Virus genome (UHGV): UHGV-1359962
Length of the DNA stretch: 10,965 bases
Direction: 5' to 3' (one strand)
Origin: a virus
In this document: positions 1,379 through 10,965 of the stretch, piece after piece
Position numbering within the stretch: the stretch's first letter is position 1
How the letters are laid out: each line of letters starts with the position of its first letter
Position numbers and translations under genes: made by a program
Notes under the pieces: generated by a model
Seen by the model: only the letters and a program-made list of their open reading frames with translations
What the model was told of the DNA's origin: nothing
Database searches by the model: none

Positions 1379-2167
1379 TCAATATCTCTTGTTCGGATTC
1401 ACTGAGTACTTTTTAAGCTTTGAAGCTACCCGACCAGCGTTACTATTAGCATTGGTGACGTTGGTTTTTTCAGCTTCTGTTAAGTCTGAATAGTCCAGCT
1501 TCCAAGCCTTATTACATTTAATCTGAGCATCGAGAATATCATTTCTGATAGCTGGAGCGTAACCGGATACATCGCTAATATCCATTAGCTCTTTGCACGA
1601 TAGCATAGGCGCGTTATTGCGTTCAGTGGTCACGTTACCTGCATTCTTCTTACTGGTCACACCACCGTCATTAGTGGTAGCCGTTTTGCCAGTGGCAGCC
1701 GAAATATCAGTTTGCCCCACAATAGCTTTAAAGTTAATTTCCTGAAAAGTTAGCTGGATTCTCAGGCCGTTTGAAATACCAACATCTTTTGAGGCTTTAA
1801 AGCTCGTAATAATGGAATCATCAATTTTAATCCCATCTTTACAGATGACAGAAATAATCTGCTTCTGGTCACGCCAGTTTTCAAGGGTTTCGATGAAGTT
1901 TTCTACTAATTGACCCTGACGAGTTAATAATAAGCTTCCTTCATAGCCAACTACAACGACACCACTAATAGTGATTGTTCTGGGTGCTCTTTGCACATTA
2001 TCTGTGACAGTTTGCCCTGATTGCATGTTCTGTGTAGTCACCTGCATAGGACTATCAAATTCCATGTTTTCAGTTGCTGATAAGGTTAAGAAGGCATCTA
2101 CATTATCTCTTAAGTGGAAATAGATGCCATCTTTGCCACTGTAACGAATCTGATTAGAGTAAATCAT
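1379..2167 (-). CDS. Hypothetical protein, 262 aa, immediately downstream of the tape-measure-like gene; tail-associated role is possible only by position
   Basis: ATG at 2167-2165 preceded by AAGGAG (complement of 2174-2179) with 6-nt spacing. The ORF-track start at 2188 is a TTG and is less likely. Stop TGA at 1381-1379. No recognisable domain; the sequence has a hydrophobic beta-like stretch ([18 protein letters not shown]) and a Thr/Asn/Gly-rich segment. Confidence 0.6.
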
Positions 2168-2242: not shown

Positions 2243-2289
2243 CTCTGTTAAGCGTGAGCTACGTAAATTCTATTTTTCAGTGCGGGTAT
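2243..2289. promoter_or_regulatory. Conserved ~45-bp element (CTCTGTTAAGCGTGAGCTACGTAAA ... GGGTAT), copy upstream of the 262-aa gene
   Basis: 25-nt block identical to 4519-4543, followed by a similar ATTTTT..GGGTAT tail. Lies in the 135-bp gap between the TMP-like gene stop (2324) and the 262-aa gene start (2167). Confidence 0.45.
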
Positions 2290-2323
2290 TAACTTTGCTT
2301 TATTCACGTAGAACACCGTTAAA

Positions 2324-4504
2324 TCAATCATCTTCTGGGAATGATGAACTTAATAACGTAGCTTCTGCATATTGGTCGTAGATATTACTGCTAAAGGTCA
2401 TAAAGCTGGTTTCATCTGGTTTAATGGCAACTTCACCACCAAGTGAAACTTTCACAGGCTCCTGAATACGCTTACTTAAAGCAGAGATTTCATCCCTCAG
2501 ACCCTGAATATCTGCACTCGTTAATGATGCATCTTGTTTCATGGTAATTAATTCTGGATGATTGAATCTTGCAATATTCATTGTGGCATTGTTAAACAAT
2601 TCACCCATTGAACTAAAAATCCTGCCCCATCCTTCGTTAATCATATTCGGTTTATTAGGGTCACCAGAATACACAGGATTAAAGTCACTACCCACACCTA
2701 CCCCAGATGGATGCATATTAGCGTTTTTGACTACTTCCTGATTCATAAAATCCAGTGCTTTCTTCAATGCATATAAACCAAGAGTGACACCTCTGATTTG
2801 TGGAATCATTGAAGCTAATGCTAACGCTGTTTCATAACCGTCATCAGCATAACCAATTGCAAGAGCACTACCTACACCACCAGCTACACCTTTCAGTTTT
2901 CCACCACCTTTACCAGTAGCTACCTGACCAGCCACCTGATTAGCTCTTGTACCTAACGTTGTGATTGCTCTTGTCAGGTTCATAACCCCTGTAGTAGCAC
3001 TGAATAGTGTCTTTGCAGATAACGCTATAGCAAGACCTTTGACAAAATTGATAAAACCATCACCGACTTCATCAAGTAGTTTTCGTTTAGTGTCATCAAG
3101 GCTGTAATAGAACTTCTTAGTCTGTAGAATCCAGCCTTCAAGGTGATTGTTAAAGATACGGATGTCATCTACACCAGCTTTAAGCATGTCGATAAGTCCA
3201 CCGATAGCATCACCAGCGATAGAAGAACTCATACCCATTTCACTAAGCAGGTTACTCAGGCTGGATAAGAAGCCGTTTAGCTCATCCTGTGAACCTGAGA
3301 AGATTTTCACCATCGTATCATCCCAGTTGTTAGCCAGTTTCCCTAAAGCTGTCTGAGTGCTCTTAGCGACTTCAGCCCAGCCACCCGCTTTATCAATCAT
3401 CAAGCCCATCTGTTTAGCGACTTTAGGGAGAGTATCACTACTTAAAATCTTCCCGTTTTTCATGGCTGCATCAAGCTCTGTAGCAGTCATACCCAGTGCT
3501 TCAGCGAATAGCTTAAATGCACCAGCCATACGGTCACCTAACTGTCCACGAAGCTCTTCAGCCTGAATCTTGCCCTTAGAAGCCATCTGCTCAAAAGCTT
3601 TCAAAATGCCGTTTAGCTCGTCGTTAGAAAGCCCCATTAAGCGACTCATAGCCGTTGCATTACCAAATAGTTCCTGTGTCTGTTCCTGTGACATAGAACC
3701 CTGAGCACCTGCTGCAAACTTAGCGTAGCTTGACAGCCCTTCAGAGATATTAAGACCTGTCTTGTCTGCTAAATTTCGAATAAATACCTCAGCCTCAGAT
3801 GCTTTATCACCAAGTACAAACTTAGCGGCTCTCTGTGCGGAATCTCGTTTAAGACCTGCATTCATAATGGCCTTGTAAGCGTTAAGAGCACCCATCACAG
3901 AGTAAAATGCACCAGATAATTTAATTGCATTGCTTGCAAGATTATTAAATGCGTCGCTTGTATTATTAATGCTGGTGGTCTTTGTCTGTGACCTGAGTTT
4001 ATTCAACGTTTCACGAAGAGATTGATTTAATTTTGCAAGTTCAGCGTTAAACTTTTCACTTCCAATATTACCAGCCTTGCCGCTTAAACTGTAATATTGT
4101 GCTTTAAACATTTTAGCCATCAGCGGATTAATATCACCAAGCTTAGACATATTCACACTATGCGCTGCTGTGATTGCTCTGTTTCCGCTAATTCGTGGCT
4201 GTCTTGGTTGTTTTGGAGGATTGATAACGTCATTAACCTGACTTGTGAAACGGAAAACTCTAGTGTTTTTTGCTCTAGCTTCCAGACGGTCAAAGGTCTT
4301 ATTAAACTTCCTTTCAAGTTGCCCTAAAGAACTTGTCAGATTGCTGTCAAGTTGCTTGGTATCGACCTTAAACGCTCTATTCAAATTACGTTCAATTCTT
4401 TGTGCTGACTGCAAAGCTGCCTTTTCAACTCTTTGCAAGCCCTTAATAACGTTCTCGCTGAAGCCTAGCTCAACGATAAAACTATCAACTTTAAATTGTG
4501 CCAT
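2324..4504 (-). CDS. Phage tail tape-measure-like protein, 726 aa
   Basis: Long ORF, ATG at 4504-4502, stop TGA at 2326-2324. Predicted helical N-terminal half. The segment MSRLMGLSNDELNGILKAFEQMASKGKIQAEELRGQLGDRMAGAFKLFAEALGMTATELDAAMKNGKILSSDTLPKVAKQM resembles the conserved tape-measure domain as I recall it, and Gly-rich hydrophobic stretches (GQVATGKGGGKLKGVAGGVGSALAIGYADDG) are typical of TMPs. The SD-like GAGGTG lies 11 nt upstream of the ATG, so the exact start is uncertain. Confidence 0.75.
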   Translation of the reverse strand: MAQFKVDSFIVELGFSENVIKGLQRVEKAALQSAQRIERNLNRAFKVDTKQLDSNLTSSLGQLERKFNKTFDRLEARAKNTRVFRFTSQVNDVINPPKQPRQPRISGNRAITAAHSVNMSKLGDINPLMAKMFKAQYYSLSGKAGNIGSEKFNAELAKLNQSLRETLNKLRSQTKTTSINNTSDAFNNLASNAIKLSGAFYSVMGALNAYKAIMNAGLKRDSAQRAAKFVLGDKASEAEVFIRNLADKTGLNISEGLSSYAKFAAGAQGSMSQEQTQELFGNATAMSRLMGLSNDELNGILKAFEQMASKGKIQAEELRGQLGDRMAGAFKLFAEALGMTATELDAAMKNGKILSSDTLPKVAKQMGLMIDKAGGWAEVAKSTQTALGKLANNWDDTMVKIFSGSQDELNGFLSSLSNLLSEMGMSSSIAGDAIGGLIDMLKAGVDDIRIFNNHLEGWILQTKKFYYSLDDTKRKLLDEVGDGFINFVKGLAIALSAKTLFSATTGVMNLTRAITTLGTRANQVAGQVATGKGGGKLKGVAGGVGSALAIGYADDGYETALALASMIPQIRGVTLGLYALKKALDFMNQEVVKNANMHPSGVGVGSDFNPVYSGDPNKPNMINEGWGRIFSSMGELFNNATMNIARFNHPELITMKQDASLTSADIQGLRDEISALSKRIQEPVKVSLGGEVAIKPDETSFMTFSSNIYDQYAEATLLSSSFPEDD

Positions 4505-4518
4505 TGTTCATATTTCAC

Positions 4519-4563
4519 CTCTGTTAAGCGTGAGCTACGTAAAAAATAATTTTTGGTGGGTAT
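4519..4563. promoter_or_regulatory. Conserved ~45-bp element, copy abutting the RBS of the TMP-like gene
   Basis: CTCTGTTAAGCGTGAGCTACGTAAA at 4519-4543 is identical to 2243-2267, and the tail ATTTTTGGTGGGTAT matches ATTTTTCAGTGCGGGTAT. It ends 14 nt from the TMP start codon. Confidence 0.45.
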
Positions 4564-4595
4564 ATCTGTTCAGAAGATTTCACGTAGCACACATA

Positions 4596-4638
4596 CAAAA
4601 AAGGGAGAAACTACCGAATAATATCGATAATCTCTCCC
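4596..4638 (-). terminator. Candidate rho-independent terminator (minus strand) after the 71-aa gene
   Basis: On the minus strand GGGAGAGA (complement of 4638-4631) pairs with TTTCTCCC (complement of 4610-4603) around a 20-nt loop, followed by TTTTTTGT (complement of 4602-4595). The loop is long, so the call is tentative. Confidence 0.4.
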
Positions 4639-4686
4639 CGTGTTATAGATTCGATAGAACCTATCTCATACACCCAACCAATTCTT

Positions 4687-4902
4687 TTAATGCATGACAA
4701 GATAATGTAGTTCCGTTTCACCTATGATTTGAGCATCAGAAGGAATACGGTCGATACACCATTTTGGAATCTTGCGTGTTTTTGGTTTGCGTGAGGTGAT
4801 AATTTGATGTTTGGTTTTAATTCTTAAGACTGGCTTAGTTTGTAACTTTAAGTTTTCACAAACAGACTTAATAGTTTCATAGCGTTCTGTTAAATCAATC
4901 AT
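4687..4902 (-). CDS. Small basic hypothetical protein, 71 aa
   Basis: ATG at 4902-4900 preceded by GAGGTGA with short spacing. It starts 22 nt after the stop of the 234-aa gene (operon arrangement). Lys/Arg-rich middle (KTKHQIITSRKPKTRKIPKW). No domain recognised. Confidence 0.5.
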   Translation of the reverse strand: MIDLTERYETIKSVCENLKLQTKPVLRIKTKHQIITSRKPKTRKIPKWCIDRIPSDAQIIGETELHYLVMH

Positions 4903-4924
4903 TCATCACCTCACATATGCATAA

Positions 4925-5629
4925 TTAAACAGCCTTGCTAAATTCTCGTGGAACACTCAGAAAATCATTGAAGCTGATAATCTGTGCCAACTCTTGACGG
5001 TACTCCTTAGCCAGCGCTTGATGGTCACTAATCAGCTTAGCCAGTCTTGATTTCAGCAAATTAATCTCATTTTCTCTTGCTTTCATCAGTTTCTCTTTGG
5101 CAATTTCTTCAAGCTCAGCTTGTGATTTATCAGCAACAATTAGAGACAGTCGATGTGGTGCTCTGACAGCTCTTTCTGTACGAACAACTCTTTGACCTTC
5201 TGGTAAATCTGCAATCACTTTACCAATCTCTACAGGGTCATACCCCCAACCGTCACGGTCTAGTCGAGAGAAATAAGCATAAGAATTGGTTTGAAGCTCC
5301 ATCAAAATAGCCATTTCGTCAATTTCGTCTTCAAGTTTGGACTGAATTTTCTCGTAAACACTTCTCATTGCTTCTTGAGAGTCTCGAAGGTCTTTGAAAT
5401 ATTTGCGTTGCAGCTTCAGTTTCAAATCAAGCTCACATTCCTCATTCATCGAAAAATCAATTTCAACTCTTGGAATCTCGATTGGTTCTGGTGGAATATA
5501 TGGACCTTTATTTACTTCGTGCGATTCCCGCCAAGCTCTATCAAAAGATTCACGCAAAGTTAATTCGTGAATATCAAGTGCACTTGGTCTGTTCTCAACA
5601 ATCATTTCGTGTTCATTACGAATGGACAT
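4925..5629 (-). CDS. Acidic coiled-coil-like hypothetical protein, 234 aa
   Basis: ATG at 5629-5627 with AGAGGAA upstream; stop TAA at 4927-4925. Charged, heptad-like regions (EAMRSVYEKIQSKLEDEIDEMAILMEL; ELEEIAKEKLMKARENEINLLKSRLAKLISDHQALAKEYRQELAQI). No family recognised. Confidence 0.7.
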   Translation of the reverse strand: MSIRNEHEMIVENRPSALDIHELTLRESFDRAWRESHEVNKGPYIPPEPIEIPRVEIDFSMNEECELDLKLKLQRKYFKDLRDSQEAMRSVYEKIQSKLEDEIDEMAILMELQTNSYAYFSRLDRDGWGYDPVEIGKVIADLPEGQRVVRTERAVRAPHRLSLIVADKSQAELEEIAKEKLMKARENEINLLKSRLAKLISDHQALAKEYRQELAQIISFNDFLSVPREFSKAV

Positions 5630-5877
5630 TAATATTTTCCTCTTCTAAGATAATTTATGTTTCAGTTTTTAAAAAGCACACCTGACAGCCTACGAACTTA
5701 GAAGAGACTTAAAAGCGTTTGCCAAGTATGCTTTTTAAAAGCTGAAAAAAGCCCTAAACATAGGTGATTCGGATATTCATGGAATCATCCTCATCTGTGA
5801 AGGGCTTTGAAGGTTTGCTTTAACGTTAACGAAGTTTCAGGAAAAACTTTCTTTAAAAGCTCTGTTTAAAAACTCTT

Positions 5878-5907
5878 AAAGAAAACGCCCTAATCATGAG
5901 TTAGGGC
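5878..5907 (-). terminator. Rho-independent terminator (minus strand) downstream of the small-gene operon
   Basis: 7-bp stem GCCCTAA (5887-5893) / TTAGGGC (5901-5907) with a 7-nt loop. On the minus strand the hairpin is followed by GTTTTCTTT (complement of 5886-5878). Confidence 0.5.
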
Positions 5908-6208
5908 AAAGCTGTAAGGGTTCAATAATGAATGATTAAGCACTTTTTGATATATAGCCTATCTAGTGGGCTAAATAGGCCATGTAGCGAAAAGCATTGC
6001 ACCTTTCAGAATAACTATCCCTAGATGTAGATGGAATTGTTGAAAGAAATAAGAGAGAATTGCTCTCCCATACTTAAAATTATGGCATATTTAAGGTTAT
6101 TTGTCAACAGCTTTTTAACAGATTGGTAACATTAATTCTTATTTACCGTGTTACCTACCCAGCAACCAACAAATAAACCCAAAGCTGTCCAAGCAATTAT
6201 TAAGCCCA

Positions 6209-6532
6209 TTAATGCACCACCTTCGAATCCGTAACCAAAATATTGTCAGCGTACAAAATTGCTATAGCTGCCTTGAGATATCTTTCAGGGCTAACGCTGT
6301 ATCGGTTCGTTTGCTCGATAACCAATCTTTTCATGTTGCTGTCTTTAATTGGTAGCATCATTCGAGGCTCGTTAAACTCCACCAACTGAATAAAATCTTC
6401 AATTGTTTCTGAGTTATCAGCCATTAGCCTTAACAGCCTGTCAAAGTCAATGCTAACACCTACATCAGTGAAAGCCTGAATCATCATAGCGGTGTCGCTA
6501 TCAACGAAAATCTGTAATTCGTAATTGTTCAT
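6209..6532 (-). CDS. Hypothetical protein, 107 aa
   Basis: ATG at 6532-6530 (MNNYELQIF...) preceded by AAGGAG (complement of 6542-6547). The ORF-track start at 6565 is a TTG 11 codons upstream and less likely. Stop TAA at 6211-6209. Confidence 0.6.
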   Translation of the reverse strand: MNNYELQIFVDSDTAMMIQAFTDVGVSIDFDRLLRLMADNSETIEDFIQLVEFNEPRMMLPIKDSNMKRLVIEQTNRYSVSPERYLKAAIAILYADNILVTDSKVVH

Positions 6533-6550
6533 TTTTAAAATCTCCTTTTT

Positions 6551-6673
6551 ACCAGACCTCCTCAATCGCTCTGTAACGAGCTAAACAGTCTTTTTCAGGG
6601 GTAGCCTGTACAGTGGTATTACCCACCCTAAAATAAGGTAGTTTTTTGCGTTAGAATGCGATTGAGAGCGTCT
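6551..6673. repeat. Copy 1 of a ~100-120 bp paired element with conserved 19-nt and 21-nt end blocks
   Basis: TCAATCGCTCTGTAACGAG at 6562-6580 and AGAATGCGATTGAGAGCGTCT at 6653-6673 are identical to 8230-8248 and 8298-8318. The interior is similar but diverged. Lies in the gap between the HNH-like gene and the 107-aa gene. Confidence 0.6.
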
Positions 6674-6687
6674 GAGAAGCTGTTTTT

Positions 6688-6975
6688 CTAATTTCTCTTA
6701 AAGTCTCGGACTTGCATAAGATTTTTTGGTCTGGTATCGGCTCTGTTACCATTTCGATGGATAATTTGCTTGTTGGATTGATAGCCATGATAAAGGAACC
6801 AGACAACATATTTCACGTAGAAAGTATATCGGCCTATATTAAATGTTTTGTTGCCGTAGTCGTCGGTATTTATCGTGACTGACTCTCCATCAGACCAGTA
6901 CAGGGAATCACTGGATTCATCATAGATAAGGTGTTCTGTAAAATATCGTCTAACATCTTCATGCCAAGGTTTCAT
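6688..6975 (-). CDS. HNH_3-like (homing-endonuclease-type HNH) small protein, 95 aa
   Basis: ATG at 6975-6973 with strong GGAGG 4-5 nt upstream. Motifs LIYDESSDSLYWSDGESV and IHRNGNRADTRPKNL resemble the HNH_3-type nuclease signature (His ... GN ... N-L) as I recall it. Shorter than typical members. Its start overlaps the upstream gene stop (ATGA). Confidence 0.55.
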   Translation of the reverse strand: MKPWHEDVRRYFTEHLIYDESSDSLYWSDGESVTINTDDYGNKTFNIGRYTFYVKYVVWFLYHGYQSNKQIIHRNGNRADTRPKNLMQVRDFKRN

Positions 6976-7187
6976 AAAACCTCCTCACCCCAATAACCTA
7001 ATTCAATCTTGTGACGCTCAAACCATTCCGGTTTAACTGCTGTTTTCAGTACTTCATTTGGGCCAATGGCTTTAATGAAAATATCTTTTGAGTTATGGAT
7101 GTCACCGAATCCGTTTCCTTTAATCAGGAGGTCGGAGATGTGGCGAATCATTTTATCTGTGTGGTATTCAAAGGTAACGCATAGCAT
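6972..7187 (-). CDS. Hypothetical protein, 71 aa
   Basis: ATG at 7187-7185 with GGAGG 4 nt upstream. Start overlaps the stop of the upstream 92-aa gene by 1 nt (TAATG) and its stop overlaps the HNH-like gene start (ATGA), indicating translational coupling. Confidence 0.5.
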   Translation of the reverse strand: MLCVTFEYHTDKMIRHISDLLIKGNGFGDIHNSKDIFIKAIGPNEVLKTAVKPEWFERHKIELGYWGEEVL

Positions 7188-7465
7188 TAAACCTCCATCG
7201 CTAACTTGTGAATCTTAAGACTCAATAGACGGGCAATATCAATTTTAAAGCCGTTAAGTCCCTTCAAAGTATCTAAAGCGTCCTGAGTAATTCGGATGTG
7301 TTTACGACCTTTAGAGACTGGATATCTAAGTAAATCCGACTCAGTAACCTCTTTAGCAATTGCAAGCTGCATAACAGTCTGATGAGGCAAGTTAGTAGCT
7401 CGTTTAATTCTGGCAAGCTCGTTAAAAGCTTCCTCTGAAATACGGGTCAAAGTGTGTTTCTTCAT
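7187..7465 (-). CDS. Hypothetical protein, 92 aa
   Basis: ATG at 7465-7463 with AGAGGAA upstream, directly adjacent to the stop of the 185-aa gene. No domain recognised with confidence. Confidence 0.55.
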   Translation of the reverse strand: MKKHTLTRISEEAFNELARIKRATNLPHQTVMQLAIAKEVTESDLLRYPVSKGRKHIRITQDALDTLKGLNGFKIDIARLLSLKIHKLAMEV

Positions 7466-8023
7466 TTAAAATTCCTCTGTAACTAAATACGGGTCAAACT
7501 CGAAATCTGGTTGCTCGTTTTCCATTGGCTCAATATTTCCAACGGCAATATGATGCTCAACAACACCAATTAACTTTGCGCACATTACAGCAAGCAAAGC
7601 GCAATATTTATCGCTTGGTAATTCATGGCTAAGTCTGGTTGCTTGACGCTGAAGATAATTTGTCACGGTAGCTGAGTTAATTTCATCAAGATTCTTTAGA
7701 ATATAAAATAGCTTTCTGTTGTATTTTGGGTGACCTTCGCTTCTGCAAAATCCGATAATTACATCTTCAAACTTGCGTGGTAATTGCTCGTAAGAATCAA
7801 CGTTAGCCAAATAATTTTTGATGCTGTTCTGGGTGCTCTTTCTGGTTGACATATAACGACTCCTCGGTGTAATTGCCCGAATTACTTCGTCAATGCCTTT
7901 GCGTTCTGCTCTGGTGAACTTGGGTACTTCGTGGCTGGTGGGGTTGTTTGTGTAAGCGTAGGAGTTGTGCTTGTTGCGTTCTCTTGATGCCTGAAGCATC
8001 GCTCTAAATTCTCTGTCGTTCAT
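7466..8023 (-). CDS. Hypothetical protein, 185 aa, first gene of the minus-strand small-gene operon
   Basis: ATG at 8023-8021 downstream of a candidate sigma70-type promoter. The SD-like AAGGA is 11 nt upstream; an out-of-frame ATG at 8027-8025 is better spaced, so the start is somewhat uncertain. Confidence 0.6.
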   Translation of the reverse strand: MNDREFRAMLQASRERNKHNSYAYTNNPTSHEVPKFTRAERKGIDEVIRAITPRSRYMSTRKSTQNSIKNYLANVDSYEQLPRKFEDVIIGFCRSEGHPKYNRKLFYILKNLDEINSATVTNYLQRQATRLSHELPSDKYCALLAVMCAKLIGVVEHHIAVGNIEPMENEQPDFEFDPYLVTEEF

Positions 8024-8071
8024 TCATAAGCCAGTCCTTATAATTGTTAATTCTCTGTTAACTTATATACA

Positions 8072-8100
8072 ATACTAGCATTTTCAAAGACTAATGTCAA
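8072..8100 (-). promoter_or_regulatory. Candidate sigma70-type promoter for the minus-strand operon
   Basis: On the minus strand: -35 TTGACA (complement of 8100-8095), 17-nt spacer, -10 TAGTAT (complement of 8077-8072). Confidence 0.5.
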
Positions 8101-8107
8101 GCATTTT

Positions 8108-8137
8108 TTAACATTTCATTAACATCTGTGGTATAAT
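8108..8137 (+). promoter_or_regulatory. Candidate plus-strand promoter with extended -10, divergent from the operon promoter
   Basis: -35-like TTAACA (8108-8113), 18-nt spacer, TG at 8129-8130 and -10 TATAAT at 8132-8137 (TGgTATAAT). Confidence 0.55.
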
Positions 8138-8219
8138 GGTTTTATGGGGAGAGTAAAATATGAGGCGTGGCTATGAGGTATCAACTATCGAGAATGGCCG
8201 CATGGTTATTGCATTGCAC

Positions 8220-8318
8220 ACAGACCTCTTCAATCGCTCTGTAACGAGTTAAATGGCCTCTTCAGGTCAACTCATAAGGTCAGGTACTTTTTGTGTCAGA
8301 ATGCGATTGAGAGCGTCT
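8220..8318. repeat. Copy 2 of the paired element, within the leader of the membrane-protein gene
   Basis: Blocks at 8230-8248 and 8298-8318 are identical to copy 1. Located between the plus-strand promoter and the ATG at 8333. Confidence 0.6.
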
Positions 8319-8332
8319 TACAAGGAAATTTA

Positions 8333-8521
8333 ATGGTAAATCTCCCTCCTGAACTGGGGTCACCTGATGTATGGGCTGGTGGAGGTGTTGGACTTATTGC
8401 GGGTCTGCTGCTTCGCTATTTCATCGTCAGAGTGTTTATCGTGTTCAGATTGTTTGGTCGTGAATGGTCGTTTGACCTCAAGGACAGGACCAGAACAGAC
8501 AACCACACAGAACCCCGCTAA
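8333..8521 (+). CDS. Small membrane protein, 62 aa, one predicted transmembrane helix
   Basis: ATG at 8333 with AAGGA 6 nt upstream; stop TAA at 8519-8521. Translation MVNLPPELGSPDVWAGGGVGLIAGLLLRYFIVRVFIVFRLFGREWSFDLKDRTRTDNHTEPR has one hydrophobic helix followed by a charged C-terminus. Preferred over the alternative frames at 8291 and 8367 because of the RBS and protein-like composition. Confidence 0.5.
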   Translation: MVNLPPELGSPDVWAGGGVGLIAGLLLRYFIVRVFIVFRLFGREWSFDLKDRTRTDNHTEPR

Positions 8522-8534
8522 ACTCCCTTCAAAA

Positions 8535-8575
8535 CCCCTATACCATCTCGTACAGGGGTATCTTTAGCATTTTGT
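8535..8575 (+). terminator. Candidate terminator after the membrane-protein gene
   Basis: Stem CCCCTATAC (8535-8543) / GTACAGGGG (8550-8558) with one mismatch, then a T-rich tail TATCTTTAGCATTTTGTG. Confidence 0.35.
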
Positions 8576-8635
8576 GCTATCTATTAAAAAACGGCTTGAC
8601 AGAACCGGAAAGCTGTATCTATCAAGTATTCACCT

Positions 8636-8816
8636 CTCTGACAGTAATTTCTAAAAGTTCTTATTTTTCAATGAGTTGTAATTAGCCAATATAAAGGACT
8701 GACAAGACCCTTCACAATTAACTCTGTAACCTTAACAGTAATTTCTAAAAATGCTTATTTTTCAATAAGTTGTAATCACCCAATATATAAGACTGTCCAG
8801 TACCTTCACAGATAAC
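8636..8816. repeat. Two tandem direct repeat units of about 86 and 95 bp
   Basis: Unit 1 (8636-8721) and unit 2 (8722-8816) align along their length. Shared blocks include CAGTAATTTCTAAAA, CTTATTTTTCAAT, AGTTGTAAT and GACTG.C.AG..CCTTCACA..TAAC. Confidence 0.7.
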
Positions 8817-9603
8817 TTCAAGCCCTCTTAACCGCCCCACTAATCGGGAGAAGAGCGATAACCCCAGAGAGGGAAGCTCCCTTCTTAATCGGCCTCCTAA
8901 CCAGTCTTTACAAACCTTGTTCAAGGTAATCACAATAGTTTTTCTTCCCTCGGTTTCCTGTGTTCCTCGGTTTATCTATTGAGACTTGAAAGACCTCTGT
9001 AAGTGCTCTCTTAGCGAGAGAAAAATCATTCATAGTGACCCCAAGCGAAGTGCCCCTCTAAAAAGATTTTTTAGCTATTTTGCTTAAAACCATATCAAAC
9101 GATACATTTTATTGATTTAGGTCAAAGACAAAAACATTGACAAAATGGTATGATTGTTCACATGACCTTACTTAACAGATTCTTAAGAGCTTTGAAACGA
9201 CCTACTTAACAAGGTCACTACCTCTGGTCTTATCGTTCCCTTCTTTCTAGGTAGTCATCTGTTAAGAACTTTTCAGTTTTATTCTTAAGATAATTGTTAA
9301 GATGATACTCTCCCTTCGGGTTATATCGTATCTCTTCCCCCGTTAAACACTCCTTCCTAACAACTTCATAGTTATCTGTCAAGTACCTTTGAAGATTCTA
9401 TCAAGACCTCTAAATCTGACCTGATATAGATGCTGTGAAGGCATGTTCTCTAGGTCTGTGTAGCTTACTTAGTGGGAAGAGAGGGTGATACATGAGAAAG
9501 AACCCCTCCTACTTAAAAGAATTATTTGACATTATTGTGATGGTTATTTAAGATGCAACTGTACAGACACCTTCATCGGTTTCTCTACACCTTCCTATGG
9601 CTT

Positions 9604-9664
9604 GGTCTGGCTAGGTAGGGTGGGGTCTGGTTAGGTAAGGTGGGGTATGGTTAAGTGTGGGTGG
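9604..9664. repeat. Three tandem ~20-bp iterons
   Basis: GGTCTGGCTAGGTAGGGTGG (9604-9623), GGTCTGGTTAGGTAAGGTGG (9624-9643), GGTATGGTTAAGTGTGGGTGG (9644-9664). Confidence 0.75.
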
Positions 9665-9696
9665 ATTGTCGTAGCCACGTTAAAAATCGACTTATA

Positions 9697-9720
9697 GGGA
9701 CTCTTTCGGGAGTCCTTTTT
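9697..9720 (+). terminator. Rho-independent-type terminator hairpin with UUCG loop
   Basis: GGACTCT (9698-9704) pairs with GGAGTCC (9709-9715) around the loop TTCG (9705-9708), followed by TTTTT (9716-9720). Confidence 0.55.
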
Positions 9721-10791
9721 AGTTTGTATAAAATCTGTACAGTAACTTTTCAGATTCTGAAAATTTTTATAAAAAAATAATCAGGCCTCTTCTAAGTCTC
9801 TTCAACCAAATCTTTCAAAAATATCTACACTCAATTGATGGCTGTTAAGTACCCCAGATTCACGATATAGCACCCCCTTTGCAAAAGCAGTTAAAATATC
9901 TATAACCAACTATTGACTTTCTTCATAGCATCTGTTAAGTCCACCTCAAGAAACCTTCATCACACTTCAAAGCATCTATCAAGAAGGTTTAACCTATCAA
10001 TAGCTGTAACATTTTGTAGTTCTGTGAAGTCCTATCCAGTTTTCTCTGTAACAGACACAAACTTCTGCGACCTTATGTATCAATGACTTAGAATACATGC
10101 TCTCAAGGTTCTGTATAGTCTCTTATCTTCAAATACACAAAACCCTTATAAATCAGTACTGATACGTATACAGTTCGTTTTTAACATAATGGCTGTTTTA
10201 CGCACTAATCGTGTTCTACATGAAATCTGTATAGATATTAAGGTGTCTGTAAGTGATTTTTTAAGAAGGGACTACGAAGATTTGACAAGGTAACTATGAG
10301 GTTGATTCCTAGAACAACCGAATCAACTATAACCATCACTTTTCAATATTCACGCAGGATATCGTTAAGTTTCTTGATAGTTACACCATGTGACCAACTG
10401 CATAGATAGCGTTATATACTCCTGTATATATCACTTTTCTAGGAGTCTGGAGAGGGACGACTAACACGATACAGTTTACCCTGAAAAGAGACTTCACAGA
10501 TTCTTTATATATTTCAATAAGTTATGCTAAAAAGAGACTATACCGATACTGCATAGAATCTGTGTAAAACTGCTTAGATACTTGGGAAAATGCCTTTAAA
10601 TTGCATAGTCATAGGGGTTGGAACAAGCCCAACTTCACCTGATATTGTCCTGTAATTAACAGGTTTCTTAGAAAACCGAATAGACTTCATTCAAGGGTCA
10701 TTGTATTGTAGCTATTCGGCATTGTAGCATTAGCCATAACGTTTATAAGTTCATCTTTAAATGATAATCAATTGCATGGGAGTTTATCACC

Positions 10792-10965
10792 ATGAGACAC
10801 GTAATTACATACCTTCGGTACAGTTCAGCCATACAAGGCGCTGAAGGTGCTGATTCAACCAGACGACAAAATGAGCTATTCAAACAGTGGTTAAGGAAGA
10901 ATAGCGATGCTCAGGTAGTTGCGTCTTTCAGTGATGAAGGGTTGAGTGGTTACAAAGGTAAGCAC
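10792..10965 (+). CDS. Serine recombinase N-terminal catalytic segment (58 codons); 3' end runs off the window end; probably the same gene as 1-1347
   Basis: ATG at 10792 preceded by GGGAG (10779-10783). Translation MRHVITYLRYSSAIQGAEGADSTRRQNELFKQWLRKNSDAQVVASFSDEGLSGYKGKH carries the serine-recombinase N-terminal signature (Y-x-R-x-SS-x-x-Q with the presumed catalytic Ser, later D-x-G-x-SG). The frame ends exactly on a codon boundary at 10965. Confidence 0.7.
   Translation, partial: MRHVITYLRYSSAIQGAEGADSTRRQNELFKQWLRKNSDAQVVASFSDEGLSGYKGKH

Follow-up and report, generated by a model that had tools for sequence, protein, structure and literature searches.

A box array in an 11-kb integrative island is shared with the genome ends of Felix O1-like phages

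The subject of this study is a short degenerate box, with the core octamer CTGTTAAG, that recurs through UHGV virus genome UHGV-1359962, a stretch of 10,965 nucleotides referred to here as the window. It represents an integrative element of 10,965 bp in circularly permuted, excised (or tandem) form. From its sequence this 11-kb island looks like a satellite-like parasite of virulent Felix O1-like phages (Ounavirinae), which are its presumed helpers. The box is a solid observation, and its derivation from cis-elements of the helper is well supported. We tentatively favor the explanation that the boxes are origin-type sites, copied from the ends of Felix O1-like genomes, that would recruit helper-phage machinery, although we are more doubtful than confident of it. 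We infer that the box is bound by a sequence-specific protein, that this protein is helper-encoded, and that the outcome is replication and not packaging.

An earlier note, made from the sequence of the window alone, had described the box ahead of several genes and in about 20 further copies, mostly in one orientation, in a region free of open reading frames (ORFs). All of the positions it quoted hold the sequences it gave for them, and the core does occur above chance. Exact CTGTTAAG was found 9 times on the two strands against 0.55 expected, and 0/200 dinucleotide-preserving shuffles reached 9. CTTAACAGAG with at most one mismatch was found 7 times (1.0 expected). The degenerate form CTRTNNAG was counted in the ORF-free region (8522-10791), where the plus strand has 17 copies (1.55 expected) and the minus strand 14 (1.43 expected). 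Five of these sites are palindromic, hence counted on both strands, and there are ~26 distinct sites, near the figure first suggested. The sites are arranged as follows.

8522-10690, no strand assigned: the ORF-free non-coding region (NCR) with ~26 degenerate boxes; no supported ORF of at least 50 amino acids; boxes ~10-fold over expectation on both strands
8595-9211, mostly minus: left block, with minus sites at 8595, 8731, 8804, 9171 and TTGTTAAG at 9204-9211, and plus sites at 8619, 8793 and 8976
9259-10234, plus: central block, with plus sites at 9259, 9376, 9398, 9433, 9456, 9842, 9932, 9976, 10022 and 10032
9559, 9735, 10111 and 10227, both strands: palindromic sites of the central block
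10373-10556, minus: right block of four boxes (sites 10373-10549), with inverted repeats I6, I7, I15 and I16
9841-9864, plus: GCTGTTAAGTACCCCAGATTCACG, the single box site with the highest conservation, without change between the E. coli islands, L024 and Citrobacter L022

Nearly all sites from 9259 to 10227 are on the plus strand, while those from 8595 to 9171 are mixed and mostly minus. The single orientation proposed earlier therefore describes the central block, but not the ORF-free region overall, which has flanking minus blocks; the exact octamer CTGTTAAG occurs there 3 times on the plus strand and 2 times on the minus strand. Single orientation also holds for the form [G/C]TTA(A)CAGAG. 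It was found 9 times on the minus strand, the sense strand of the genes, and 0 times on the plus strand (0.37 and 0.26 expected; maxima of 4 and 3 in 500 shuffles). Other E. coli islands have TTA(A)CAGAG in a ratio of 7 to 0-2 (four islands) or 3 to 0 (two more).

Paired boxes 10-11 bp apart, such as CTGTTAAGaaCTTTTCAG, are common in the central block. Among same-strand neighbors 8/22 distances are 10-11 bp, and the sites are in helical phase with P ~0.02. Direct repeats in 10-11 bp phase lie beside an AT-rich tract (9735-9790), which is a feature of origin iterons. Conservation was examined across 8 island variants using the six fixed positions of each box. The fixed positions were 96.0% conserved compared with 88.1% for non-box positions, and only 0.05% of 2,000 random placements reached the observed value (permutation P ~0.0005). 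L024 is a divergent relative of the island with ~65% protein identity, inserted in a DUF72 gene near aspS, a second integration site. Boxes that change in L024 mostly keep the form of the motif, for example CTGTATAG to CTATTCAG and CTATCCAG to CTCTTCAG, and CTGTTAAG is among the top 8-mers of its NCR with 4 plus and 2 minus copies.

The same unit was found at the ends of the helper genomes. In phage garuso, convergent gene blocks enclose a 1.65-kb stretch of non-coding DNA that is packed with CTGTTAAG, TTGTTAAG and CTTGTTAG. This region, at 49.0-50.5 kb, is the sole dense box cluster of the 85.8-kb genome. It corresponds to a 581-bp direct terminal repeat (DTR), defined by PhageTerm and annotated in phage Pr103Blw, plus the right flank of the repeat. 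Several independently deposited Felixounavirus records begin in the box-rich region, at the same base. In the first 2.5 kb of the Pr103Blw record the heptamer TGTTAAG was found 15 times compared with 0.84 expected. The left end has 3 inverted copies (CTTAACA) at 11-bp spacing, the first of them 5 bp from the end, 8 plus-oriented copies lie within the repeat up to the right boundary, and 4 more lie farther right. Helper boxes are phased at multiples of ~10.5 bp (10-11 bp) with P ~0.001.

Both boundaries of the DTR are inverted, extended boxes, TAGCCC(CC)TTAACA, exact in garuso and Pr103Blw. At the corresponding aligned positions of Felix O1, Mijalis and Sf15 this motif is found exactly or with a single mismatch. 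CCCTTAACA occurs 3 times in garuso, with 2/3 copies at the repeat boundaries. In an alignment of two Felixounavirus and two Mooglevirus genomes the spacers vary, whereas neither the boundaries nor the TGTTAAG cores show any change. The boundary motifs are located as follows.

L006 1-14 and 568-581: inverted copies of the boundary motif
L004 5410-5423 and 5989-6001: inverted copies of the boundary motif

From these comparisons the box is, we conclude, the repeat unit of a conserved and presumably cis-acting region at the genome ends of Ounavirinae, and TAGCCC(CC)TTAACA is likely a terminase cut-site motif. A search of the literature produced no description of Felix O1-like origin or packaging signals, nor of the DTR boundary motif. 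A looser relative of the box was observed elsewhere in garuso, where leaders that follow double TTGACA early promoters (L003 12100-12310 and L004 13640-13810) contain phased, sense-oriented arrays of CTTAAAAG, CTTAACAG, CTATACAG and CTTATAAG.

The window matched phage DNA only from Felixounavirus and relatives (212 records). Three of the homologous segments are non-coding.

9190-9265, minus: homologue of the center of the helper DTR, with inverted-repeat arms around a purine-rich spacer, flanked by boxes
9735-9774, minus: homologue of the AT-rich tract just right of the helper DTR, TTTTATAAAAATTTT...CTGAA, 83% identical over 41 nt
9596-9691: GGT-rich element, 84% identical over 68 nt to a helper non-coding element that occurs twice near the helper ligase gene

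The first of these is 78% identical over 78 nt to positions 245-318 of the Pr103Blw DTR (E 1e-10) and 82% identical to garuso 49681-49739, and its inverted-repeat arms are conserved across Ounavirinae genera. The helper AT-rich tract is near-invariant between Felixounavirus and Mooglevirus. Helper copies of the GGT-rich element were located at garuso 4396-4474 and 5652-5719 and at tootiki L005 2340-2600. The three segments share one relative orientation, which matches that of the tail genes.

The tail genes were also compared with phage DNA. Window positions 1634-2143, the 3' two thirds of a Dit-like gene, are 92-96% identical to Felixounavirus DNA, and the tape-measure gene has patches of 78-79% nucleotide identity to garuso. 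The rest of the Dit-like gene and the tape-measure gene are far more diverged than 1634-2143. Such a mosaic of identities indicates that the island and infecting phages have recombined recently.

Other features of the NCR were noted. A candidate small RNA of ~160 nt on the plus strand (9526-9722) begins with a promoter-like TTGACA-17-TAAGAT (9526-9554), has a body rich in GGU (9596-9691) and ends in an intrinsic terminator (9696-9722); its fold z-score is -2.1 and it has no Rfam match. Three known kinds of site were considered and set aside. The consensus of an IHF site was unmet by eye, resemblance to nut/boxA was weak by eye and confined to the repeat D5, and a pC194/phiX-type nick site CTTGATA (complement of CTATCAAG) has no HUH protein to go with it.

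That sites for a helper protein were copied is suggested by the shared unit, by the helical phasing and inverted blocks, by conservation of the boxes in both island and helper, and by two pieces of the terminal region inherited together with them. The earlier note had offered several functions for the box, among them a protein-binding array for partition or packaging. This option fits best, except that the array is not private to the element but is the unit of the helper terminal repeat. Therefore the binder is more likely to be helper-encoded than to be one of the small island proteins. An origin role is favored over a copied cut site because the arrays, the AT-rich tract and the hairpin were kept while the terminus motif TAGCCC(CC)TTAACA was not found above chance. 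The lack of a recognizable replication protein among the island ORFs, which were compared with Pfam, NCBIfam and PHROG and matched no replication family (RepA_N initiators included), supports the origin role. The helper link is supported by the GC content of the island (39.7%), which is near that of the helper (38.9%) and not that of the chromosomal flank (48%), and by the 92-96% patch in the Dit-like gene, a sign of recent exchange.

The proposed mechanism runs as follows. The serine recombinase would excise the island. The box array, with the hairpin/purine element of the terminal-repeat center and the AT-rich tract, would then act as origin-type iterons. The array would recruit the DNA machinery of the helper so that the island is amplified, probably as concatemers. 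CTTAACA copies in gene leaders may couple the box-binding factor to expression of the tail genes, which is the weakest step.

Several results weigh against copied origin sites. No candidate for a box-binding protein was identified in island or helper. In the helper, the array falls on the terminal repeat and its boundaries, for which packaging is at least as natural a reading, and convergent transcription units flank the region, an uncommon setting for an origin. [quoted passage not shown] The island boxes show modest phasing (P ~0.02), and in L024 it does not reach significance. In the comparison with L024 the boxes are 83.7% conserved and the spacers 77.9%, a small gap, and many long non-box blocks are conserved as well; therefore the NCR holds more than boxes.

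The best surviving alternative is that the boxes mimic a packaging signal, that is, they would be sites for the helper terminase or for packaging initiation, and island concatemers would be loaded into helper capsids. We regard this as possible, though on the unlikely side. The helper array is the direct terminal repeat itself, the extended inverted boxes at both repeat boundaries are exact in four phages of two genera, and three CTTAACA copies at 11-bp spacing stand 5 bp from the left end. Eight copies of the island (8 x 10,965 = 87,720 bp) would fill one head, as helper genomes are 85.8-88.4 kb (helper record MW481326). PICMI satellites (phage-inducible chromosomal minimalist islands) are packaged as 8-mer concatemers without capsid remodelling (PMC10803314), and the window is an excised circular or tandem form. 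However, the terminus motif gave no match above chance in the window or in any island NCR scanned, and the homologous segments comprise the repeat center and the outside flank but not the boundaries. Island length varies with cargo, so the 1/8 ratio may be a coincidence. An exact-match search of viral contigs for the attP junction found none, and a protein-based scan of IMG/VR found 7 island copies, all on contigs of 20-55 kb, and no free 11-kb element.

Box copies in gene leaders bear on some of the remaining alternatives. These copies are CTCTGTTAAG at 2243-2252 and 4519-4528, CTCTGTTAAC at 8053-8062, CCTCTGTAA at 7474-7482 and TCTGTAACG at 6570-6578. They had been described as lying just 5' of, or fused to, the Shine-Dalgarno sequence (SD). 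The tape-measure copy is fused to its SD, 12 nt from the ATG, but it is the only fused one and not all of the others adjoin an SD. Nor are they all separate instances, since the copies at 2243 and 4519 share a duplicated 80-nt module and those at 6570 and ~8238 share a duplicated 125-nt module. The leader features are listed below.

2243-2322, minus: module D4 copy 1, in the gap that separates the tape-measure gene from the Dit-like gene, with the box CTTAACAGAG at 2243-2252
4511-4596, minus: module D4 copy 2, directly upstream of the tape-measure gene; it has the hairpin CTACGTGAA...TTTACGTAG and, after it, CTCACGCTTAACAGAG, which is fused to the SD
6553-6680, minus: module D5/D7 copy 1, the structured 5' leader of the 107-amino acid gene, with the box GTTACAGAG at 6570-6578 in the 3' arm of a long hairpin
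8221-8325, no strand assigned: module D5/D7 copy 2, 86-89% identical to copy 1, with a box at 8236-8244; within the plus-strand 5' untranslated region of a 62-amino acid ORF
8053-8062, minus: GTTAACAGAG box, at ~+3 to +12 of a sigma-70-type promoter (TTGACA-17-TAGTAT, 8100-8072) of the 185-amino acid operon
7474-7482, minus: TTACAGAGG, the weakest member, overlapping the last codons of the 185-amino acid ORF and the SD of the 92-amino acid gene

D4 has a common plan, a conserved hairpin CTACGTGAA ... TT[T/C]ACGTAG followed by CTCACGCTTAACAGAG, and it is directly upstream of both helper-derived tail genes in all islands, L024 included. The tape-measure copy is preceded by a strong terminator (4639-4602) and lacks a sigma-70 promoter. 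A scan of all loci with the D4 core, together with inspection of the regions upstream of the helper late operons, showed it to be absent from the phages. TTA(A)CAGAG is likewise not enriched in the helper, with 10 copies per 86 kb on both strands. The RNA of D5/D7 copy 1 is predicted to fold with -46.5 kcal/mol (z -3.9) and with the box base-paired. Among the islands, conservation of the leaders is limited to CTTAACA, the heptamer of the helper box, while the GAG extension is lineage-specific, with CTTAAAGAGG in the tape-measure leader of three E. coli islands and CTTAACATGA and CTTAACATAA in the leaders of L024. Leader copies and array can be treated as a single family only as far as the heptamer CTTAACA/TGTTAAG goes, and the leader copies may be a signal separate from the array.

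The two D5/D7 copies are transcribed in opposite senses, one as the leader of the 107-amino acid gene and the other within the leader of a 62-amino acid hydrophobic ORF (8333-8521), for which 8108-8137 is a promoter-like site. Over ~125 nt the one RNA would be complementary to the other, and a trans-antisense pair or a toxin-like small membrane protein module is possible.

Boxes could serve transcription control, as operators or promoter elements through which a dedicated regulator, or a remodelled host RNA polymerase, times the island genes to infection. We consider this unlikely. The reverse complement of the box, CTTNACAG, includes a -35-like TTNACA, and helper early promoters are CTTGACAAGG, but the variable base N shows no preference for G, so that it is not a true TTGACA. 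Promoter-like sites in the window number 33 compared with 28.3 expected, and the leader boxes are too near the start codons to be -35 elements. The box at 8053-8062 is placed like an operator, downstream of the start of a strong sigma-70-type promoter, and the tape-measure and Dit-like genes, which lack such a promoter, each follow a D4 that ends in CTTAACA. On the other hand, a promoter role is impossible for the tape-measure box, which is fused to the SD at a distance of 12 nt from the ATG, nothing like D4 was found in the helper loci, no box was found upstream of helper late operons, and ~26 sites across 2.2 kb of gene-free DNA are unlike operators. The dedicated sigma factor that the earlier note had suggested is poorly supported by the positions of the tape-measure and 8053 boxes. 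The mechanism that times Felix O1 transcription is given as unknown in the genome paper (PMC3185647), which leaves room for a regulator of this kind, and our search of the literature found no Felixounavirus transcriptome or late promoter.

Alternatively, the island may be a decoy or defense element without efficient transfer, in which the array titrates the helper initiator or terminase and variant tape-measure and Dit-like proteins poison tail assembly. This draws on the same sequence facts as the copied origin sites, and we think it quite unlikely. It would account for diverged copies of two tail-assembly proteins in an island without capsid or packaging genes, and for related sequences in 549/5,426 complete E. 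coli genomes, chromosomal every time. PLE blocks its helper and transduces poorly (PMC7145576). No PADLOC defense model matched the island, however, and the intact recombinase and attP, the free circle, the second site in L024, and the relatives in Citrobacter and Salmonella argue for real mobility.

Decidedly improbable, in our estimation, is a signal at the RNA level, in which sense-oriented TTA(A)CAGAG marks an mRNA processing or translation site, or pairs with plus-strand NCR transcripts carrying CUGUUAAG. The 9 sense and 0 antisense copies, a bias that recurs in other E. coli islands, agree with the processing or translation signal proposed in the earlier note, as does their place in 5' leaders within structured modules. 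Plus-strand promoter-like sites are present in the NCR at 9125-9154 and 9526-9554, and small RNA control is known in the PLE-ICP1 system. But the structural context differs, being single-stranded after the D4 hairpin and paired inside the D5 stem, and the divergent islands keep just CTTAACA in these leaders and not the GAG extension. Nor can an RNA signal explain arrays in both orientations or the array in the helper terminal repeat. Finally, boxes without function, a by-product of base composition or recent internal duplications in an AT-rich region (37% GC) where some boxes lie within longer low-identity repeats (D1, D3, D8, D10), are extremely improbable, as this is contradicted by the shuffles, which never attained the observed counts, by the selective conservation of box positions, by box-bearing repeats that are just 70-84% alike outside the box, and by conservation of the unit across helper genera.

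We now turn to the island that carries the array. The window was recognized as the excised circular or tandem form because the recombinase ORF joins across the window ends and the attP core is intact. Positions 10792-10965 joined to 1-1347 give a single ORF for a 506-amino acid large serine recombinase, with 480/506 residues identical to the recombinase of the chromosomal copy L001. In alignments of the L001 junctions, window 10691-10964 corresponds to the left junction and 9724-10703 to the right junction.

10792-10965, plus: large serine recombinase, 5' end; the reading frame resumes at window position 1
1-1347, plus: large serine recombinase, 3' part, with Resolvase, Recombinase and Zn_ribbon_recom domains
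10691-10703, no strand assigned: attP core TCAAGGGTCATTG, common to both chromosomal junctions
2324-4504, minus: tape-measure protein gene, 726 amino acids, matching Pfam TMP_3 and PHROG 4036, homologous to the Felixounavirus gene
1379-2167, minus: Dit-like baseplate/tail hub gene, 262 amino acids, matching Pfam Dit_like and PHROG 3721 (E 1e-130)

The gene set further includes a small HNH endonuclease, several orphans and the opposite-strand 62-amino acid hydrophobic ORF. No capsid or terminase gene was recognizable among the island ORFs. The 185- and 234-amino acid proteins have no family, PDB or phage homologues, and the 185-amino acid orphan also lacks a fold match; an exhaustive search with it gave 21 matches among 1.8 billion representatives. 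A scan of Rfam (E <= 1) gave a single chance miRNA match below threshold, and the window contains no tRNA or tmRNA genes. Four Chi sites, GCTGGTGG, 3 of them co-oriented, were observed at 2877 (minus) and at 3971, 7934 and 8375 (plus), compared with 0.15 expected from shuffles. By our own estimate their density is about that of the E. coli chromosome, despite the phage-like 40% GC of the island.

In all 4 E. coli loci inspected the island sat between tonB and yciI, and the plasmid collection held no similarity to the island. More relatives were found in Citrobacter (including L022), Salmonella, Shigella and E. albertii. Island length differs among strains according to cargo, and the non-coding region doubles as a cargo hotspot. 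Its cargo in the variants consists of a Dam-type N6-adenine methyltransferase, a second small recombinase and a hypothetical protein.

L001 13516-14184: cargo insertion in the non-coding region of an island variant
L010 10593-11261 and 12183-12731: cargo insertions in the non-coding region of an island variant
L009 12176-12841: cargo insertion in the non-coding region of an island variant

Felix O1-like phages are classics of typing and biocontrol in Salmonella and E. coli, and sequences related to the island are present in about a tenth of complete E. coli genomes. The shared box is a concrete cis-element and hence a pointer to the missing DNA-binding protein. If the proposal is correct, the box would reveal the DNA-recognition code that controls replication or packaging in the Felix O1-like genus, and would explain why hosts bearing the island may resist or subvert these phages. 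The island would then be a new kind of satellite or defense element for virulent coliphages, with a bearing on host range in phage therapy and biocontrol, and would bring the examples of satellites of strictly lytic phages to three, PLE and PICMI being the other two.

No satellite of Felix O1 or of Ounavirinae was described in the literature searched. It is quite possible, at somewhat less than an even chance, that the island represents the first satellite family of Ounavirinae phages, one that exploits its helper by copying the iteron array of the genome ends. In its working the island is most like PLE and PICMI but it is a member of neither, and it shares no sequence with PLE, PICMI, phage-inducible chromosomal islands (PICIs) or P4.

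As is proposed for the island, PLE is a chromosomal island parasitising a virulent myovirus, and in both, several types of repeat occupy a non-coding region of multi-kb size, 2.7 kb for PLE and 2.2 kb for the island. PLE too integrates by a large serine recombinase, and the island has such a recombinase and att sites. In PLE, a satellite of the lytic phage ICP1, the repeats of the 2.7-kb non-coding region are origin iterons (PMC7145576). The repeats of the 2.2-kb ORF-free region are enriched and conserved, and an origin role is predicted for them. PLE differs in its size (18 kb), its host (Vibrio) and its own RepA_N initiator, and has no sequence in common with the island. Unlike in PLE, the repeats of the island are the helper's own unit, and the island has helper-derived tape-measure and Dit genes.

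PICMI, from Vibrionaceae, is also a small satellite of virulent phages. Its concatemer of ~8 copies equals the helper genome in length, and it has no capsid-remodelling genes; it integrates beside fis, its excision and replication need alpA, int and prim, and its packaging looks headful (PMC10803314). The island is likewise ~1/8 of its presumed helper, but no alpA, int or prim was found in it (no ORF matched an AlpA or primase family), and it is inserted at tonB/yciI or, in L024, the DUF72 gene instead of fis. Helper-like cis repeats are unreported for PICMI.

The island differs from PICIs, capsid-forming PICIs (cfPICIs) and P4 in lacking their marker genes: a tyrosine integrase, an AlpA/Stl-type regulator, a primase-helicase, terS, and capsid or sid-type genes were undetected among its ORFs. 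In P4, the Staphylococcus aureus pathogenicity islands (SaPIs) and other PICIs, a copy of the helper cos or pac site enables the helper terminase to package satellite DNA. Those are single defined sites, whereas the island has a multi-copy degenerate array and no helper terminus motif. Of the features of the helper terminal repeat, the island has the internal array of repeats and the repeat core, but not the boundary motif.

The array resembles the iterons of lambda ori, P1 and RepA_N plasmids, in which an initiator binds cooperatively to short direct repeats that are helically phased and adjoin an AT-rich tract. Iterons of the classical kind measure 17-22 bp and are few, closely spaced and in one orientation, whereas the unit of the island is 7-8 bp, with ~26 copies in 2 kb, and in inverted blocks. 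Arrays of a degenerate heptamer reportedly border the terminal repetition of T7 and T3, as Dunn and Studier are said to have described in 1983, and are thought to act in concatemer processing and packaging. The likeness is that of a direct-terminal-repeat phage whose repeat is bordered by arrays of short repeats, but phage family and sequence are different, and we know of no satellite that copies the T7/T3 arrays. Mimicry of helper cis-sites is a known strategy of satellites, but the copied feature described here differs in that a multi-copy degenerate array of a direct-terminal-repeat phage is found together with helper tape-measure and hub genes.

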